A DNA stretch of 11,057 bases from a virus. Position 1 is the first letter of the stretch; every line of letters starts with the position of its first letter. The translations under genes were made by a program, and so were the position numbers. The notes below the pieces were generated by a model. It worked only from the letters and a program-made list of their open reading frames with translations, did not search any database and was not told the DNA's origin. This document shows positions 89 to 10,918 of this stretch, piece after piece. The DNA lies in UHGV virus genome UHGV-0152719, one strand, 5' to 3'.

Positions 89-110
89 GCAATACACACT
101 GCAATACACG
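89..110. repeat. Two tandem copies of GCAATACAC(A/G) motif (left-end partner of the 10865-10918 repeats)
   Basis: gcaatacacac at 89-99 and gcaatacacg at 101-110; same motif and orientation as the three copies at 10865-10918. Confidence 0.5.
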
Positions 111-1019: not shown

Positions 1020-1304
1020 TTACCGCCGTAACCGTTCCGGCTTCTTCCACTGGTAAGTTTTTTTCTCGCTCTCCTGATACATCGCCACACGTCGACGGTA
1101 TGCCAGCAACTCTAATACCCTGGTTCGTATGTCGCGCATATCCACGCCGTTAAGATCGATACCGTCACAGCGCATCACCTCAGCCACCACACGCGCGTAA
1201 TTTTCAGCGGTGACGGTATCAGGCTGCATGGCCTCCTGTGTGCCAGCCTGCTGGCTGATTCCGGTAACGCGGCGGATTAATCCCAGTAGTTCGGCTTCTG
1301 TCAT
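1020..1304 (-). CDS. Hypothetical protein (94 aa), last gene of the packaging operon
   Basis: ORF directly downstream of the Nu1-like gene on the same strand; ATG at 1304; no recognisable family; weak Shine-Dalgarno. Confidence 0.45.
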   Translation of the reverse strand: MTEAELLGLIRRVTGISQQAGTQEAMQPDTVTAENYARVVAEVMRCDGIDLNGVDMRDIRTRVLELLAYRRRVAMYQESEKKTYQWKKPERLRR

Positions 1305-1315
1305 AGTGCGCTACG

Positions 1316-1858
1316 TTACTTGTCTTTATCCGGCTGAAACTTATCAGGCACATTTCCGGTAGTTTCCATCAGATAATCGGACAGTATTCGCGGGATGTTT
1401 TCATCAAGTTTTGTGCATGCGTTACAGGCTCTGACAACTTCCTTTTTAAGTCCATCCAGCATAGCGGGGGTAATCTGTGGGAAGCGCCTTTGCATGGTAA
1501 GCGGCAAACTGTCCATGATTGAAGAAATCTGACTCGCCAGTTTTGAAAGCACATATATACAAAATTCCGTACTAATAACGTCGCCGCGTTCGCGCTCGTT
1601 TTTAAGCTCCTGCGCCTCCGCCTGCGCTGTCAGCAATCTGATCCTGACTCGCAAAAGTTCATCATTATCAATCTCGCCTTTGTCGTCTGTAATCTGGTTA
1701 ATTGCATTGCTAACCCGATTGTCTATTACGCTGGCAACATCATAAAACGCCTCGCGGCCTTTACGTTCAACGGGAGTCACTCCCCACTTGTCGAACGCTG
1801 TCGCACTTACACGGCAGCTTTGCGCCATGTTTTTTTTGTTCATCAGGTACGATTTCAT
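1316..1858 (-). CDS. terS: Terminase small subunit, lambda Nu1-like
   Basis: C-terminal two thirds (LTAQAEAQELKNERERGDVISTEFCIYVLSKLASQISSIMDSLPLTMQRRFP...IPRILSDYL) closely parallels lambda gpNu1 (LTRAQADAQELKNARDSAEVVETAFCTFVLSRIAGEIASILDGLPLSVQRRFP...IPGLLSEYI); N-terminus (MNKK...FDKWGV...EAFYDVASVI) resembles the Nu1 winged-HTH more loosely. Start uncertain: GTG 1870, ATG 1858 (GGGGA SD-like upstream, chosen), ATG 1843 (aligns with Nu1 MEVNKK). Confidence 0.8.
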   Translation of the reverse strand: MKSYLMNKKNMAQSCRVSATAFDKWGVTPVERKGREAFYDVASVIDNRVSNAINQITDDKGEIDNDELLRVRIRLLTAQAEAQELKNERERGDVISTEFCIYVLSKLASQISSIMDSLPLTMQRRFPQITPAMLDGLKKEVVRACNACTKLDENIPRILSDYLMETTGNVPDKFQPDKDK

Positions 1859-1968
1859 CAATATCCCCACTTAAGTAATGTTTCAGGTTGGTGTGTTGGT
1901 GTTATCTTTCCCTTTTTATTCATAGAGATAGAGCGAAAAACAAAACCACCACCAGCACCCGAAAAAGG

Positions 1969-2012
1969 CTCATAAATAGCGAAAACCCGCGCGCCTTCCG
2001 CCCCGTAGCCTG
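1969..2012 (-). other. Lambda-like cos site (cosN-equivalent plus adjacent conserved flank), upstream of terS
   Basis: Minus strand reads caggctacg-gggcggaaggcg-cgcgggttttcgctatttatga; lambda cos as recalled is caggttacg-gggcggcgacct-cgcgggttttcgctatttatga. 22 contiguous nt identical downstream of cosN, left half of the 12-nt cosN identical, right half differs at 6 positions. Position (about 150 bp upstream of terS start) mirrors the lambda cos-Nu1 arrangement. Confidence 0.6.
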
Positions 2013-2059
2013 CCGGATCGCCGGAAAGGACCCGCCAGCCAGAACGGGCCCTAATTTCA

Positions 2060-2443
2060 TCAACCAATCAACTTATAGCGACCATCCCGTGCATTGCGAC
2101 GTACACGCTCAATCTTGAGGCATAGCGCCGCATCTGGCTTTTTTGGGACAGGTACGCGGCAATATTCAGAAGATCGAGGAATATTGTTTATCCAGTCGAT
2201 CACTTCACTTAAATACCAGGCCTTACGCCCTTCCGTAACCTGTACGCGTTCGGGGAACTCTCCGCGAGCCTCAAGGTTTAGCAATGTGCGACGGCTAAGG
2301 GTAGTAAGTTCCATCACCTGATTCATATCAACAAGGCGTTCACTTAAACGCATTTTGTCAGCAATAGCCTTTAATTCCTCTACTGCTGGATCCGGATACA
2401 TCATTTCGGCAATTGGCTTAAGGTCATTGTAATGATTCTGCAT
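2060..2443 (-). CDS. AlpA-family (excisionase-like) helix-turn-helix DNA-binding protein, 127 aa
   Basis: Motif LTTLSRRTLLNLEARGEFPERVQVTEGRKAWYLSEVIDWI matches the AlpA/phage-excisionase HTH pattern (G-FP ... W..SEV..WI); ATG at 2443 preceded by AAGGGGGA Shine-Dalgarno. Confidence 0.6.
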   Translation of the reverse strand: MQNHYNDLKPIAEMMYPDPAVEELKAIADKMRLSERLVDMNQVMELTTLSRRTLLNLEARGEFPERVQVTEGRKAWYLSEVIDWINNIPRSSEYCRVPVPKKPDAALCLKIERVRRNARDGRYKLIG

Positions 2444-2454
2444 TGTATCCCCCT

Positions 2455-2796
2455 TTACACACGAGCCAGCGGCTGAACAGAAATACCTGAGCCAACAAAC
2501 GCGGCAACCTTTGCCGACAGTTCTTTTACAGACTCAGGCCAGTTCAGAGCATCAACATTTAAAACGCCTGTCTTATAAACCTGTGCCTGTGTTTTTTTCG
2601 CTGTGTCGATTTGTACAGCGGAAACATAAACCGCTTTACCTACGCTCGAACCATCCCATACCACCAGTGCACCTGTTGCATCTTCCTGCATCAGTGGCGT
2701 AAATGCAGGAATTACCCCTTTATTAGCTGAAAATATCCCCAGCGTAGTCACCAGTGCTTCAGTGCCAGCCATGAGTTCAGTGTAATGAGTAGCCAT
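2455..2796 (-). CDS. Head decoration protein, lambda gpD-like
   Basis: 113 aa; TPLMQEDATGALVVWDGSSVGKAV and NWPESVKELSAKVAAFVGSGISV parallel lambda gpD [24 protein letters not shown] and [33 protein letters not shown] Shine-Dalgarno before ATG at 2796. Confidence 0.8.
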   Translation of the reverse strand: MATHYTELMAGTEALVTTLGIFSANKGVIPAFTPLMQEDATGALVVWDGSSVGKAVYVSAVQIDTAKKTQAQVYKTGVLNVDALNWPESVKELSAKVAAFVGSGISVQPLARV

Positions 2797-2805
2797 TGCT
2801 CCCCC

Positions 2806-3852
2806 TTAGCCAATGCGAACGGTAACAAAACGATTGATGCGGGCCGGTATTGGCTGTGGTGCTGAATGTGTCTGCACATATTCAATAGCCGGATCACCAG
2901 GCACAATATAGTTTTTCGGTGCAAGTTCGGCTTTAGTCAGCCCCATTCGGATTAGCTCCGGATCCTGAATACCGCCATAGGCGACAATCCCCTGAAGAGC
3001 CGTATTGCCAAGCACCATCAAATCAGGATCAAGGAAATGTTTTTCAGTTCCGTCCTCGTCGGTATAACGCCCGCTGTATACAACAATCGCAACATCGCCC
3101 ATATACCCTTTAAAACTCACCGAATCACCAAGGTCTTTAAGAGCCGTTTCCAGTTCGGAATTAGAACCACGACGGGTATCCAGAGCCTCTTTTATCGCTC
3201 TGAATGAACGGTATTTCTTCCATACATTACCGCCCATAATGATGATATTAGTGACGCCCTCACTAAATTCTGCGTAGCTCTCAATATCATCATTTGGATC
3301 AAAAGTTTCTTTATCCTTACCTGACCACTCAGCACCGCCAGACTGAGTGATGATATTTTGTGGTTTAATATTCCAGTCCAGCTCATAACGTTCAATACCA
3401 TCGCCCTCAATGATATTTTTCCCCGTTGTGATTGCCTGAACGGCAAGCCATTCAATACGTGCACGAATAGCTTTAGCCTGATTTACAATCGCCTGTTTAA
3501 CTTTAATATTACGCGCTCCAAAAGCATTGTATTGCTCAGGTGATACACCAGCAGGGCGCACAGCTAACTTATTTGGATCAATGCTGCTTTTCGGCTTCAT
3601 ATAGCCTGGACGAATTGTTTTTGATTCGTACCCTTCGTCACGTGAAACTTTACTACCCACCATAGGAGAACAAAACGCTGCAATTGGGATATTTGGATCG
3701 TCGATTGTATCAAGAATAATATCGCGCGATTCAAACATTACCGAGCGAGTGAAAAACAAACTGGTAAACAACGCATTTAATTTTTTTTGCACATCTTCAG
3801 CATTAGCCACCTGCACAAGCTGTGTAGGCGAATATAAATCAACCATACTCAT
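2806..3852 (-). CDS. Major capsid protein, lambda gpE family
   Basis: Strong similarity to lambda gpE: NIITQSGGAEWSGKDKETFDPNDDIESYA ... RSFRAIKEALDTRRGSNSELETALKDLGDSVSFKGYMGDVAIVVYSGRY vs lambda NITQSGGTEWSKRDKSTYDPTDDIEAYA ... RSFKAVKEKLDTRRGSNSELETAVKDLGKAVSYKGMYGDVAIVVYSGQY. The ORF extends to 3933, but the MSMVDLY start (3852) matches the gpE N-terminus MSMYTT; the alternative ATG at 3846 has better SD spacing. Confidence 0.85.
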   Translation of the reverse strand: MSMVDLYSPTQLVQVANAEDVQKKLNALFTSLFFTRSVMFESRDIILDTIDDPNIPIAAFCSPMVGSKVSRDEGYESKTIRPGYMKPKSSIDPNKLAVRPAGVSPEQYNAFGARNIKVKQAIVNQAKAIRARIEWLAVQAITTGKNIIEGDGIERYELDWNIKPQNIITQSGGAEWSGKDKETFDPNDDIESYAEFSEGVTNIIIMGGNVWKKYRSFRAIKEALDTRRGSNSELETALKDLGDSVSFKGYMGDVAIVVYSGRYTDEDGTEKHFLDPDLMVLGNTALQGIVAYGGIQDPELIRMGLTKAELAPKNYIVPGDPAIEYVQTHSAPQPIPARINRFVTVRIG

Positions 3853-4017
3853 CCTCTTTACATTCATTACAAATAATTGTGAATATATTCTATTACCGAT
3901 GTCTGCTATGCGAATACATGCAACCAAGTGCAATGTTGTATAAAATATGCCGTAACAACTTCAGTGCTGATAATTCGTGTTAATGTATTTACTTCCTTTG
4001 GTTGGGATTTATGTAGC

Positions 4018-4057
4018 ATGCCGGAAAATCTATTTTTTTCCGGCATCTTTTTGTTTG
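4018..4057 (+). terminator. Hairpin plus T-tract (intrinsic-terminator-like) in the ssb-capsid intergenic region
   Basis: atgccggaaaa / ttttccggcat inverted repeat (4018-4046) followed by ctttttgtttg; the U-tract is on the plus strand, so it would stop antisense or convergent transcription. Function uncertain. Confidence 0.4.
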
Positions 4058-4063
4058 CAGAAT

Positions 4064-4486
4064 TTAAAACGGTATATTATCGCCGTACGGATCATCATTC
4101 CCCGACTGTTGTTTTGCCCTGTTCAGTGCGTCAGTGGCCTGCCCCTGCTGGCCTTTTTTGCCGCCCGGTCGCGCCGTTCGCGCACTGATTACGCTGTCTG
4201 CGATAACCTGCCAGCCCCGCCGCGTTTCGCCGTTCTGGCCTGTCCACTGGCTTACCTGCATGTTACCCGCCACGCTCACCAGTTCGCCTTTGTGGTGTTT
4301 TGCCAGTGCGTCGGCCTGTCTGCCAAACGCCAGGACGGATAACCACATCGTCGCCGTTCCGTCATCTGCCTGGCTGCACGGCAGGGGAACCGCCATACTC
4401 GCCATCGCCATTTGTGTCCCTTTGCTGGTGGTCTTTAACTGCGGGTCAGCCACCAGCCGCCCGTAAGCCGCTATCTGTGCTGTCAT
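4064..4486 (-). CDS. ssb: Single-stranded DNA-binding protein (SSB-like OB fold with acidic C-terminal IPF tip)
   Basis: WLSVLAFGRQADALAKHHKGELVSVAGNMQVSQWTGQNGETRRGWQVIADSV parallels E. coli SSB [52 protein letters not shown]; Gly/Gln-rich linker; C-terminus DDPYGDNIPF resembles the SSB DDDIPF tail. Start ATG overlaps the upstream gene's stop (ATGA). Confidence 0.7.
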   Translation of the reverse strand: MTAQIAAYGRLVADPQLKTTSKGTQMAMASMAVPLPCSQADDGTATMWLSVLAFGRQADALAKHHKGELVSVAGNMQVSQWTGQNGETRRGWQVIADSVISARTARPGGKKGQQGQATDALNRAKQQSGNDDPYGDNIPF

Positions 4487-5026: not shown

Positions 5027-6781
5027 TTATAAAAACGCGTCGCAATCCTCTGTTGTTGTCACATTGGTTTGCGTAAGTCCTTTAACCCTGCGCGTTATAT
5101 ATTCACATCCGTAAACTTTCGCCGCTGGCTTCATGGCCTTGCTGAAATCAGCCACGTTTAGCGGCTTGCTTCTGCCTGCGTATGCCATAAACGCCAGATA
5201 GACGCGGTAAAGGCTGTTTCTGGTCGTGTACTTCACGGAATCGCCACCGCCACCCATCATCAGGCCGCGCGCTTCCTCCAGAAAATTCAGAAACTGGCAA
5301 AACTCAATAACCGGATCCGTCTGTTGCTTTATCGCCAGTGCTTCTTCACCGTCGCGCTGTTCAATCAACAAATGTCGCGCCTTTTCTGGATCAGCAAAGT
5401 TTGCCAGCAATCTGCGGATAATCACGGGGATTTCAGCCGCGACCTTCTCCGGTAAATCCTTGTCCTTTTCTGCCTCGCTAACGATATTGTCGAAGCGGAA
5501 AATTACGCGACGACGTGACACACCTCCGGCCCGTTCGGTGAATATCATCGGGTTATTGTTGGTAGCCAGCACCACCGCCCTGATTACCGCCGTAAAACGC
5601 TTTTCATATTTCGGGTTTATTTCCACGGGGTCGCCGCCCGTGATTTTCTTGATGCCCGTGCCTTCGCCTGTATATTTCGGCTGGTCAGCCAGGACGATAA
5701 GACGACTCCCGACAACCTGAGCACGCCCACCAGCATCATCAAGCGAAGTCATTTCAGCGCTTACCGTGTTCTGTTTCCCTGCCAGAAGGCTGGCTATGTG
5801 CGTGAATGTACTCTTTCCGCTCCCGCCGTCTCCGGTGGCCTCAATAAACATCTGCCAGTCGTACCGGTTCGCCATAATCATGTACAGCGCGGCACATATA
5901 CGCATCATCTTGCGTGGGTCTTTTCCGGCTGCGTGATCAAGCCATTTATGAAAGTTTGGCGCGTTGTCGCGGATGTTCTCCCCTGGTGCTGGTGGCGTGT
6001 ACTCAATGCCGTTGTGCGTGGTGATCCAGTTCTCCGGCGAGTGCGGGGAAAATTCCCCCGTTTTCAGATTAAGCACACCATTAGTGAACGGTAGCAAATC
6101 GCCAGACGGCTCGCCCATTGGTTCGGCAATAACTTTTAACGCTTCCACGGCGTTATTGATTGCGCGCTTGCTGAAAGTGGCCCTGTGCTCTGAATAGATC
6201 GCCACCATTTCGCGGCTAAGTTCCATTGTGCTGACCGGACACCATACCCCGCCGCGCCATACGTGAACGATTTCACTTTCAGGATGTACGCAAACGCCAT
6301 CAAAGCGATCGGCAAGCAACTGCGCGCGCTCACTGTCCGCCATCTGCGAAAGTTGCGCCTTTTGCTTTACCGGAAGCTCAATGACCAGACCATCAGAAAG
6401 ATTCTGGCGTTCACGGGCCAGATATTCGCGCCAGTTCTGCACCTCCTGGCCGTGCATACCCTCAGGATAAAAATTTGCATCCTGTACGCCTGCTGCCGCC
6501 AGCTTCTGACCAATCGCCTTTATCATTACAGGCGCAAGATATCCGGCCCTGTATATGCGTGCTGATTTTCGGCCTTCCGGCACAATTTGCAGATTATCCA
6601 GTTCGGATAGCTGCTGCTCCCCAAGCCACACAGGAGGCTCATTATCTCCGGCCATACGCGCATCATGTTCCTGCCATTGTTTCGCGTGTGCCCAGGCATC
6701 ACTACCCGCAAAAATAATGACTTCTGTTCCTTTGTGTTTTATGCCGCGTGACTGCTGTTTTACGTTCGGTGCCAGTTTCAT
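5027..6781 (-). CDS. Primase-helicase, phage/plasmid P4-alpha-like (Walker A GDGGSGKS)
   Basis: 584-aa ORF; Walker A motif TGDGGSGKST followed by helicase-like region; N-terminal primase-like portion; typical P4/PICI pri-rep size and position next to iterons; start ATG overlaps upstream gene stop. Confidence 0.85.
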   Translation of the reverse strand: MKLAPNVKQQSRGIKHKGTEVIIFAGSDAWAHAKQWQEHDARMAGDNEPPVWLGEQQLSELDNLQIVPEGRKSARIYRAGYLAPVMIKAIGQKLAAAGVQDANFYPEGMHGQEVQNWREYLARERQNLSDGLVIELPVKQKAQLSQMADSERAQLLADRFDGVCVHPESEIVHVWRGGVWCPVSTMELSREMVAIYSEHRATFSKRAINNAVEALKVIAEPMGEPSGDLLPFTNGVLNLKTGEFSPHSPENWITTHNGIEYTPPAPGENIRDNAPNFHKWLDHAAGKDPRKMMRICAALYMIMANRYDWQMFIEATGDGGSGKSTFTHIASLLAGKQNTVSAEMTSLDDAGGRAQVVGSRLIVLADQPKYTGEGTGIKKITGGDPVEINPKYEKRFTAVIRAVVLATNNNPMIFTERAGGVSRRRVIFRFDNIVSEAEKDKDLPEKVAAEIPVIIRRLLANFADPEKARHLLIEQRDGEEALAIKQQTDPVIEFCQFLNFLEEARGLMMGGGGDSVKYTTRNSLYRVYLAFMAYAGRSKPLNVADFSKAMKPAAKVYGCEYITRRVKGLTQTNVTTTEDCDAFL

Positions 6782-8614: not shown

Positions 8615-8670
8615 TCACATTGCCCACCAGCCGCAAATGTGGCATTGTTGGTGATGCTTTTGTTTTCCCT

Positions 8671-9307: not shown

Positions 9308-9333
9308 ACAAAAAACCCCTCGTGATGAGGGGT
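9308..9333 (-). terminator. Hairpin with flanking A/T tracts (bidirectional terminator-like) between alpA and the Bro-N gene
   Basis: cccctc-gtgat-gagggg stem-loop (9316-9332) with acaaaaaa on one side (a T-tract on the minus strand) and tattattt on the other. Confidence 0.5.
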
Positions 9334-9345
9334 ATTATTTACTGG

Positions 9346-9603
9346 TTATTGCTGTTTTGTTTTTCCAGGTTTCCATCCAGGATGCCACTCACCACGGATC
9401 CATGCCTGAACCTCTGAAAGTCGATACCCTGCAGCACGTTCACCGATCTTGATACGTCGCGGGAATTTACCTGCCTGCTCCATTTTCCAGCGTGTTGAGT
9501 TTGCCAGCGTGGTAAGTGCTATGCACTCTTTTTCACGAATGAACCGATCAATGTCCTTCATTGTGCGCAAATCGTTTTCATCAACAAGAGAATAAATTGC
9601 CAT
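9346..9603 (-). CDS. alpA: AlpA-family transcriptional regulator / excisionase-like protein
   Basis: 85 aa with HTH IALTTLANSTRWKMEQAGKFPRRIKIGERAAGYRLSEVQAWI typical of AlpA (prophage CP4-57 regulatory protein family); AAGAGG SD; immediately downstream of the integrase. Confidence 0.8.
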   Translation of the reverse strand: MAIYSLVDENDLRTMKDIDRFIREKECIALTTLANSTRWKMEQAGKFPRRIKIGERAAGYRLSEVQAWIRGEWHPGWKPGKTKQQ

Positions 9604-9604
9604 A

Positions 9605-10846
9605 TCACACCACCTCTTTATTAAGCTCGATAACGTTGTTGTTAAATCCTGCTATCGTATTAAGGTAATTAACCCACATATTAAGCACCTCAAGTTTTTT
9701 CTTTATATGCCTGCTTTTATTGTAAACACCAGCAACCCCTTTCACTTTATGACCTAAAAGAAGTTCGACAATATAAGGATCCGCCCCCATATCATTAAGC
9801 GTAGTGGAAAATGTGCGCCTGAAATCATGTATGCACCACAAGCCATTAGTATCATGACCAAGACGCCTGCATATTCTGTTTGCAGCCCCTGTTATTGTCG
9901 CCCTTTGCAAAGCACAACCGACAACATAACCGCAATTTTTTGTTTCTGCGTAAAGATTAACGATCCATTGTTTTATTCCGTCAGGAACAGGCCTTACTAT
10001 AGCCTCCTTGTTTTTGCTGTGCTCTTTTGGGACTGTCCATACCCAGTTTTTTAAATCCCATTCGTCCCAGGTGGATAGCCTCGCCTCCTGCTGTCGGCAA
10101 CCAAACACCAGGCAGATAACCATTATTCTTCGGTTATATATTGATGACAGAGTTAGCAAATTATTACCGTAAGCATAAGACCATACATCAGCGGTTTCAT
10201 TGATATTAAGAACGCGATCCCTTATACCGGATGAGCGCCCGACATAACTTACGTTAATATCTCCAAAGGGATCGCACGCGATGTATTGCCTGACGCGACA
10301 AAAACGCAACGCCTGTTTGATATCAAGAAAAATTGCACCAGACATAACAGGCGCATTTTTTTTGATCCTGTCAAAGACGGTAAGCCATGTGTGTAATTTG
10401 CACTGTTCTATAGCCATATCACCGATATAGGGGAAGATATGCTTTTCAAATCGTTTTATTAAATATTCATGCTCTTTTCTGGCTGTTGTGGCGTGATTGT
10501 CGTACCAGTAAAACAGCGCATCCCTTACGGTCACTGGTTGCATAGTTTTTTCGGCAGCAAGTTTTATTTGCCTGCGGGGGTCCAGATTTTCAGCCAGCCA
10601 TTCACGGCACTGATCACGCATGCGCCTGGCCGTTGCAAGAGACATGTCAGGATAGCGACCAAGTGTAAGCCATACCGGAGGGGATTCCCTGCCACCAAGA
10701 CGATAGTAAAAAACAAAGCTGATCCCCCCAACCATGCTTACACGCACAGACAACCCGCGCCCATCCGCTATTGTTTTTTGTTTGTCCTGCCGTTTTCCGA
10801 CAAGACTCTTTAACAGTTTGTCACTGAGTTTGTTTTCAATAGCCAT
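9605..10846 (-). CDS. int: Tyrosine site-specific integrase, P4-type
   Basis: 413 aa; N-terminal P4-integrase-like arm-binding region (MAIENKLSDKLLKSL...GRGLSVRV); catalytic-domain motifs including HDFRRTFST and the GVAGVYNKS tyrosine region; GAGGG SD upstream. Confidence 0.9.
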   Translation of the reverse strand: MAIENKLSDKLLKSLVGKRQDKQKTIADGRGLSVRVSMVGGISFVFYYRLGGRESPPVWLTLGRYPDMSLATARRMRDQCREWLAENLDPRRQIKLAAEKTMQPVTVRDALFYWYDNHATTARKEHEYLIKRFEKHIFPYIGDMAIEQCKLHTWLTVFDRIKKNAPVMSGAIFLDIKQALRFCRVRQYIACDPFGDINVSYVGRSSGIRDRVLNINETADVWSYAYGNNLLTLSSIYNRRIMVICLVFGCRQQEARLSTWDEWDLKNWVWTVPKEHSKNKEAIVRPVPDGIKQWIVNLYAETKNCGYVVGCALQRATITGAANRICRRLGHDTNGLWCIHDFRRTFSTTLNDMGADPYIVELLLGHKVKGVAGVYNKSRHIKKKLEVLNMWVNYLNTIAGFNNNVIELNKEVV

Positions 10847-10864: not shown

Positions 10865-10918
10865 TTGCAATACACACCCACCCCGATCGCCAATTTGCAA
10901 TACACATTGCAATACACA
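10865..10918. repeat. Three direct copies of TTGCAATACACA motif upstream of int (partner of 89-110 repeats)
   Basis: ttgcaatacacac 10865-10877, ttgcaatacaca 10895-10906, ttgcaatacacaaa 10907-10920; same motif and orientation as the two copies at 89-110; candidate att-arm / recombination-directionality or int-promoter operator sites. Confidence 0.5.

Follow-up and report, generated by a model that had tools for sequence, protein, structure and literature searches.

The DNA analysed, referred to as the window, is the whole stretch of 11,057 nucleotides from the virus genome UHGV-0152719 and is a helper-embedded PICI, a type of phage satellite published in 2023 by Tommasini, Mageeney and Williams (PMC10111431). 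On the minus strand the order is int, AlpA85, Bro-N, small ORFs, D5_N primase, SSB, capsid, decoration, HTH127, a 189-bp gap, TerS, and a 94-aa ORF (Table 1). The co-orientation of int, alpA, Bro, primase, and late zone, the insertion in a portal gene, and the motif TGTATTGC are shared with the published elements (PMC10111431). In particular, the portal gene of a lambdoid prophage in E. coli GPEC1031 (L001 4001-14843) is interrupted by a 95.5% identical element, which has the orientation of the prophage late operon; in the relatives L002, L005, L006-L009, and L012 the interrupted gene is the major capsid gene of a prophage, and all helper-embedded relatives are inserted in the orientation of the helper late operon. 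The attP arm motif TGTATTGC is located at both ends of the window (89-108 and 10867-10916). AlpA85 is presumed to be the excisionase and an early activator, a role taken from PMC10111431 and PMC6092414.

Table 1. Coordinates of the genes and sites of the window, with the basis of each assignment.
Feature	Position	Strand	Basis or remarks
Conserved 94-aa protein	1020..1304	-	phrog_1561
Nu1-like small terminase TerS	1316..1870	-	Pfam Phage_Nu1 E 1e-23, residues 68-151; phrog_57
Satellite-type cosB	1871..1968	-	Inverted GGTGGTGG-type repeats 1946-1956, 1886-1903; one holds a Chi octamer
cosQ-cosN block, lambda-homologous	1969..2036	-	Alignment with lambda, helper prophage, and EcCICFT073 cos1; kept after HTH127 in related loci
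HTH127, AlpA/excisionase-family winged-helix protein, 127 aa	2060..2443	-	Pfam, PHROG, and PDB matches, ortholog alignment, AF2, Foldseek
Head decoration, lambda gpD-like	2455..2796	-	Pfam HDPD E 4e-15, phrog_49
Major capsid, lambda gpE-like, 346 aa from ATG at 3846	2806..3846	-	Pfam Phage_cap_E E 5e-41, PGAP start, ortholog lengths
Putative core promoter and 5' leader, capsid operon	3847..3907	-	Consensus scans, alignment
Candidate HTH127 operator	3908..3943	-	Four hexamers, exact 10-bp period
GC-rich hairpin between ssb/replication zone and late zone	4018..4046	.
D5_N primase	5027-6781	-
Canonical 85-aa AlpA (AlpA85) beside int	9346..9603	-	Pfam Phage_AlpA E 5.4e-14
Tyrosine integrase, helper-embedded PICI clade	9605..10846	-

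The 189-bp gap (1871-2059) contains cos and aligns with lambda cosQ-cosN, its sequence in the window being GGGTCCTTTCCGG..ACGGGGCGG..CGCGGGTTTTCGCTATTTATGA. The equivalent of the 12-nt overhang is GGGCGGAAGGCG at 1992-2003; this satellite cohesive-end equivalent differs from the sequence in lambda and the helper (GGGCGGCGACCT). The cosB of the window also differs from lambda and helper cosB. The lambda R3, R2, and R1 are replaced by the GGTGGTGG-type repeats, which probably serve as sites of the satellite-encoded TerS and not of HTH127. The TerS has a Nu1-like C-terminal part and a diverged N-terminal DNA-binding part, and the 94-aa protein is 74% identical to the 93-aa protein that follows rppA in EcCICFT073.

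Family, fold, and distribution of HTH127

The ORF of HTH127 is confirmed, is preceded by an AGGGGGA ribosome-binding site, and follows the stop of the decoration gene by 11 nt. HTH127 is a real, conserved gene: its homologs form 99 protein clusters across Enterobacteriaceae, from Escherichia to Buttiauxella, nearly all of them of 127 aa, and an identical protein in E. coli is annotated by PGAP. Phage_AlpA (PF05930) is the sole Pfam family that exceeds its curated threshold in HTH127 (35 bits, threshold 21; E 1.3e-8 over residues 36-85); phrog_2790 matches the protein over its full length (E 2.4e-48), and a phmmer search of PDB sequences matched the GIsul2 excisionase, 8c3t (E 8e-11). The preliminary description had recognised an AlpA gene beside int and a second, larger AlpA-like HTH protein between the decoration gene and cos/terS; both assignments are borne out by the Pfam, PHROG, and PDB matches, and the position by the Pfam and PHROG matches of the neighbours and the alignment with lambda cosQ-cosN. 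No NCBIfam family matched HTH127, a tblastn search of 50,697 phage records found nothing, and no relevant paper on PDB 8C3T was found in the literature.

According to the ortholog alignment and the AF2 model, HTH127 consists of two N-terminal helices (~8-33), a winged-helix core (35-89), a linker, and a basic C-terminal helix (~105-119). Residues 35-89 are nearly invariant among orthologs and the C-terminal tail is conserved. The AF2 run with 19 close orthologs only gave a pLDDT of 52 and was unusable; once distant AlpA sequences were added, the mean pLDDT was 76, with the core above 90, and the core elements (helices 40-47 and 51-60, strands 67-70 and 73-77, helix 78-86) correspond to a winged helix-turn-helix fold. 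The best Foldseek match of the model is again 8c3t (rmsd 0.9, TM 0.86 on the target), followed by RdfS, GlnR/TnrA, BldC, Pukovnik Xis, and TorI.

The AlpA/Xis recombination directionality factors (RDFs), including CP4-57 AlpA, P4 Vis, KplE1 TorI, the GIsul2 excisionase, and RdfS, share Pfam family and fold with HTH127 and are small winged-helix proteins expected to form oligomers on direct repeats with a spacing of one helical turn. Unlike these proteins, HTH127 has no integrase neighbour (it sits ~7 kb from int, with no adjoining tyrosine integrase) and is unlinked to one integrase type, its candidate target is a promoter and not att, and it possesses extra N-terminal helices and the conserved basic C-terminal helix; its identity to AlpA85 is 33% across 57 residues. 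The minimal MerR/Xis-like winged-helix regulators BldC of Streptomyces, 186 Apl, and P2 Cox act on variable numbers of head-to-tail repeats and differ from HTH127 in organisms and targets, with 18-24% identity in the structural alignment. In particular, Apl is an RDF-type winged-helix protein that regulates transcription through direct repeats spaced by one helical turn (PMC7498355), and BldC is a winged-helix regulator that binds direct repeats (PMC5859096).

Two other resemblances were discarded. The Rpp proteins (RppA/B/C) of EcCICFT073-type PICIs are, like HTH127, small PICI winged-helix proteins encoded near cos; however, Rpp takes the TerS slot on the downstream side of cos, and HTH127 is upstream, the downstream slot of the window being occupied by the Nu1-like TerS. 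HTH127 and Rpp have no sequence or profile similarity, homology being ruled out by an hhalign probability of 0.2%, and no Rpp chain was present among the PDB phmmer matches. The P. aeruginosa 'AlpA' is an unrelated 21Q-like antiterminator whose name is shared by coincidence: it has an eight-helix fold with a C-terminal HTH (contact residues 128-142, PMC9371919) and an N-terminal part that forms a ring in the RNA exit channel, in contrast to the 127 aa of HTH127 with its HTH at 40-60.

Ortholog loci were examined in Kosakonia, Kluyvera, Superficieibacter, Cedecea, E. coli variants, Scandinavium, Buttiauxella, Salmonella, Serratia, and IMG/VR contigs; the search of IMG/VR for related loci returned E. 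coli copies only, 94-100% identical, which increased the numbers and added little diversity. Orthologs with at least 50% identity always follow the capsid and decoration genes, and cos is next in nearly all relatives. The capsid-decoration-HTH127-cos module is present in 394 of 5426 complete E. coli genomes (~7%). The capsid-decoration-HTH127 part accompanies differing integrases and attachment sites, with insertions in a prophage portal gene, in a prophage capsid gene, in the Salmonella chromosome, and, in Serratia, in the chromosome beside fis. The regulator next to int also differs among HTH127 elements, being Phage_AlpA, HTH_17, or none detected; the Salmonella chromosomal element, for instance, encodes a 473-aa Int and an HTH_17 regulator. 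Downstream of HTH127 the scored loci carry their own Nu1-like TerS (65), an RppA homolog (2), or neither (42). The two IMG/VR loci L122 and L123 have both an HTH127 ortholog (75-76% identity) and a downstream RppA homolog; HTH127 and Rpp are therefore not mutually alternative.

The TTGCAY array and the capsid promoter region

The candidate operator is formed by the hexamers TTATAC (3938-3943), TTGCAC (3928-3933), TTGCAT (3918-3923), and TCGCAT (3908-3913), which occupy the positions 62-97 nt upstream of the capsid gene, the end of the array being 62 nt from the capsid ATG. The window contains two overlapping matches to the array, with 0.03 expected by chance. In the alignment, three or four TTGCAY hexamers with an exact 10-bp period, the first unit often being TTATAC, are the most conserved intergenic block across genera. 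The triple array was found nowhere but upstream of the capsid gene in ~0.4 Mb of loci (both strands), and 159 kb of controls (the cognate helper prophage, the CFT073 prophage, and EcCICFT073) gave no match. Allowing up to two mismatches, the array is present in 109 of the 114 scorable HTH127 loci, mostly near-identical E. coli elements, at 79-120 bp before the capsid start.

EcCICFT073 (L011 39960-43655) has capsid and decoration genes and lacks both HTH127 and the array; it is the only negative-control PICI because the other candidate without HTH127, H35, is an ordinary lambdoid prophage. The co-occurrence of array and HTH127 is partly due to shared descent since the module is inherited as a block. 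The hexamers are kept and the spacers vary (mean information of 1.75 vs 0.57 bits per position), a contrast that is partly built in because the arrays were chosen by motif match. An exact triple-array scan of IMG/VR was unspecific: 20 of the first 120 matches lie upstream of this capsid gene and the others belong to unrelated contigs and tandem repeats. In EcCICFT073 an unrelated 137-aa protein takes the place of HTH127 after the decoration gene and before cos1, and a PerC-family regulator, which may be a different solution for the control of the late zone, is encoded upstream of the capsid genes.

The array appears to co-vary with the HTH127 recognition helix in a single lineage. In Serratia the recognition helix reads SRQT and not SRRT, the wing GRYGW and not GRKAW, and the hexamers are of TTGTGC type instead of TTGCAC (ATTGGG/ATTGTG/CTTGTG), with place and period unchanged. 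The weakest point of the argument that links HTH127 to the array is the degenerate array of Scandinavium and Buttiauxella, whose HTH127 is 57-58% identical with an unchanged recognition helix; here, a degenerate TTATAC-type array is accompanied by an inverted CTGCAC-TTACAC-CTGCAC triple.

Two further motifs were considered and set aside. An antisense triplet, GTGCAC-N3-TTGCAT-N4-CTGCAT, lies inside the decoration gene (~2667-2700, plus strand) in E. coli elements only; as an operator it was rejected, being attributed to coding conservation and not kept in other genera, and it is probably due to chance. A sigma-54 promoter (-24 TGGCAC N5 TTGCW -12) was also rejected, given that TTGCAY has no GG and the hexamers are 4 nt apart, not 5. 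The arm motif TGTATTGC(A), on the minus strand, occurs in tandem copies with a 12-bp period; its form TGTATTGCA has an ATTGCA core in common with the capsid-upstream hexamers of 10-bp period, and HTH127 and AlpA85 may recognise half-sites of related sequence.

Downstream of the array, a consensus scan of the window found the promoter match TTCGCA-16 nt-TAGAAT (3914-3887), the best in the window, in which the last hexamer falls on the -35 (TTCGCA, 3909-3914). Most relatives have an extended -10-like TGnTAnCAT downstream of the array and no recognisable -35. The GC-rich hairpin that separates the replication zone from the late zone has an equivalent in relatives (GCGGGC..GCCCGC); its terminator score is on the antisense strand, and the U-tract on the sense strand is weak.

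Candidate roles of HTH127

The comparison of sequences suggests that HTH127 switches the satellite capsid genes on or off rather than aiding the recognition of the packaging site. HTH127 is probably a Xis/BldC-like regulator of the capsid-packaging operon and its auto-activator, and we favour, with moderate confidence, its being the dedicated transcription factor of the late capsid-decoration-HTH127-cos-TerS operon, which it would control through the TTGCAY array; the capsid gene is proposed to be the first gene of this operon. The preliminary description had offered two roles, a late-operon regulator and a cos factor: the former fits the array, which co-occurs with HTH127 and seems to co-vary with it, and the latter is not supported.

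In the proposed mechanism, HTH127 monomers would bind head to tail on the three or four hexamers, one helical turn apart, immediately upstream of a core promoter whose -35 is weak or missing. Of the DNA-binding proteins of the array-bearing elements, HTH127 alone is present in every one, and its oligomerisation on the array is the most economical reading. The location of the array in relatives, roughly at -40 to -70, together with the missing -35, favours activation; since the HTH127 gene is within the operon that it would control, its circuit would work as a latch with positive feedback. Read-through would supply the first transcripts, due either to the Q-modified helper RNA polymerase in embedded elements or to the AlpA-driven upstream operon, and HTH127 would maintain the expression of capsid and TerS after excision of the satellite. 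We infer the binding of HTH127 to the array, activation rather than repression, and read-through as the trigger. The helper-embedded configuration itself adds a passive, helper-driven component to late transcription (PMC10111431).

The closest functional parallel is the satellite P4, in which the gene of a regulator is likewise among capsid genes and int, an AlpA-like protein (Vis), and primase are encoded in the element. The P4 layout comprises int, Vis, primase, and a late operon with its own activator, delta; this late activator is encoded inside the sid-delta-psu operon and exerts positive feedback on its own late promoter. In addition, P2 Cox activates the P4 late promoter PLL. However, delta is an Ogr-type zinc finger of unrelated fold, HTH127 has no Cys4 Ogr_Delta domain, and the resemblance to Ogr/Delta is functional only.

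Among the alternatives, an auto-repressor or timer, in which HTH127 bound to the same array shuts the capsid promoter and limits or delays the production of capsid and TerS, is unlikely. Cox represses promoters via arrays of a similar kind, and the layout in the window fits repression too, the fourth hexamer overlapping the only consensus-like -35. Repression through similar arrays is also described for the RDF-type Apl (PMC7498355). Nevertheless, the array of most relatives precedes an extended -10-like element and a -35 is missing, as is typical of activator-dependent promoters, and a late structural operon without a good promoter would need an activator, which argues against a repressor. 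A broader version of auto-activation is also unlikely: HTH127 would be the master switch of late expression in a large class of capsid-encoding enterobacterial PICIs, and its conserved basic C-terminal helix and N-terminal helices would contact a second partner, which may be RNA polymerase, terminase, or the complex formed on the attP arm sites (TGTATTGCA). If this dual function were true, capsid production would be coupled to packaging at the adjoining cos or to the timing of satellite excision from the helper late operon.

It is very improbable that HTH127 acts, as the preliminary description had suggested, as a cos-specificity or IHF-like architectural packaging factor that bends or marks cos so that terminase prefers the satellite. 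The idea is tempting since the end of the HTH127 gene is 56 nt from the cosN overhang equivalent, with cos next in nearly all relatives, no sequence within one mismatch of the IHF consensus occurs in the satellite cosB, and the DNA-binding domains of small terminases (7lwr, 6hn7) are distant Foldseek matches of the same fold. However, HTH127 at least 94% identical is found beside two unrelated types of cosB, namely the satellite type with its own TerS in 41 loci and the lambda type (R3, R2, R1) without TerS in at least 16 loci, and other ortholog loci carry an Rpp homolog or lack both TerS and Rpp; one HTH127 type combined with differing cosB, TerS, and Rpp therefore does not support a role in cos specificity. 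In the same way, the winged-helix core is nearly invariant and cosB is variable, the DNA from the HTH127 stop to cosQ is not conserved among relatives, no conserved non-lambda candidate site was found at cos across the compared loci, and the TTGCAY repeats that track HTH127 are absent from cos. The cos-recognition idea, being unsupported, is now removed.

A trans-acting regulator of the helper or the host, interfering with helper late functions or transactivating them as P4 delta does, is a poorer candidate still. Satellites often interfere with their helpers, and P4 delta, which transactivates the helper by activating its late promoters, offers an analogy; but the array scan gave no sign of this for HTH127, with zero TTGCAY triple arrays in ~64 kb of the cognate helper prophage and zero in that of CFT073, and lambdoid late genes are under Q antitermination with no upstream activator. 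The least likely role is that of a second recombination directionality factor (excisionase) at attP, which agrees with excisionases being the nearest solved relatives of HTH127 and with the ATTGCA core common to the arm motif TGTATTGCA (89-108, 10867-10916) and the capsid-upstream hexamers, but is disfavoured by the occurrence of the module with unrelated integrases, attachment sites, and insertion sites and by the arm motif being reported only in helper-embedded PICIs, which already have a tightly conserved AlpA beside int.

If HTH127 is the activator of the late operon, this would explain how the late genes stay on after a helper-embedded satellite leaves the Q-driven transcription unit. A defined regulator-operator pair would be an experimental handle on late gene control in satellites, and PICI-based delivery vehicles could profit from a promoter and an activator that form a compact, orthogonal pair. 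The element type, the capsid and decoration genes, the cos sites of PICIs, and Rpp are already published (PMC6092414, PMC6739421, PMC9026076, PMC10111431), and Phage_AlpA and HTH_17 proteins are grouped as 'Integration' in PMC10111431. A late-zone AlpA paralog and its repeat array were found described neither in the available part of PMC10111431 nor in the wider literature, and no account was found of the timing of capsid and terminase expression in Gram-negative PICIs. What is new here is a plausible late-regulator role for an AlpA protein of known family, moderately interesting and not surprising in kind.

Repeats, cargo, and Chi octamers of the element

Directly after the alpA85 stop and ahead of Bro-N, a GC hairpin with a downstream T-run (CCCCTCATCACGAGGGGTTTTTTGT, ~9312-9335, minus strand) looks like an intrinsic terminator that would require read-through or antitermination. 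At the other end of the element, the region 1-1020 is ~1 kb without a credible gene and with several direct or inverted repeats of 20-44 nt; AATCAATGGGTTA occurs twice (789-801 and 844-856). Rfam and tRNA scans of the window gave nothing. At the corresponding position, relatives carry cargo of defence type, such as Abi_C (L006) and a TIR protein (L005); in L012, putAbiC adjoins alpA instead.

Chi octamers (GCTGGTGG) are present twelve times in the 11 kb of the window in comparison to 0.38 expected from shuffles. They are located at 144-618, 1949-1956, 4424-4457, 5727-5995, and 8624-8631, with six in the gene-free 144-618 and one inside cosB. Related PICIs are also rich in Chi, and in several loci (e.g. 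L012-L014) most of the octamers share the orientation of the genes and point to the right end of cos; the lambdoid helper prophages L010, L017, and L018 have zero Chi inside the prophage DNA; the enrichment in the satellite suggests protection of concatemers from RecBCD.
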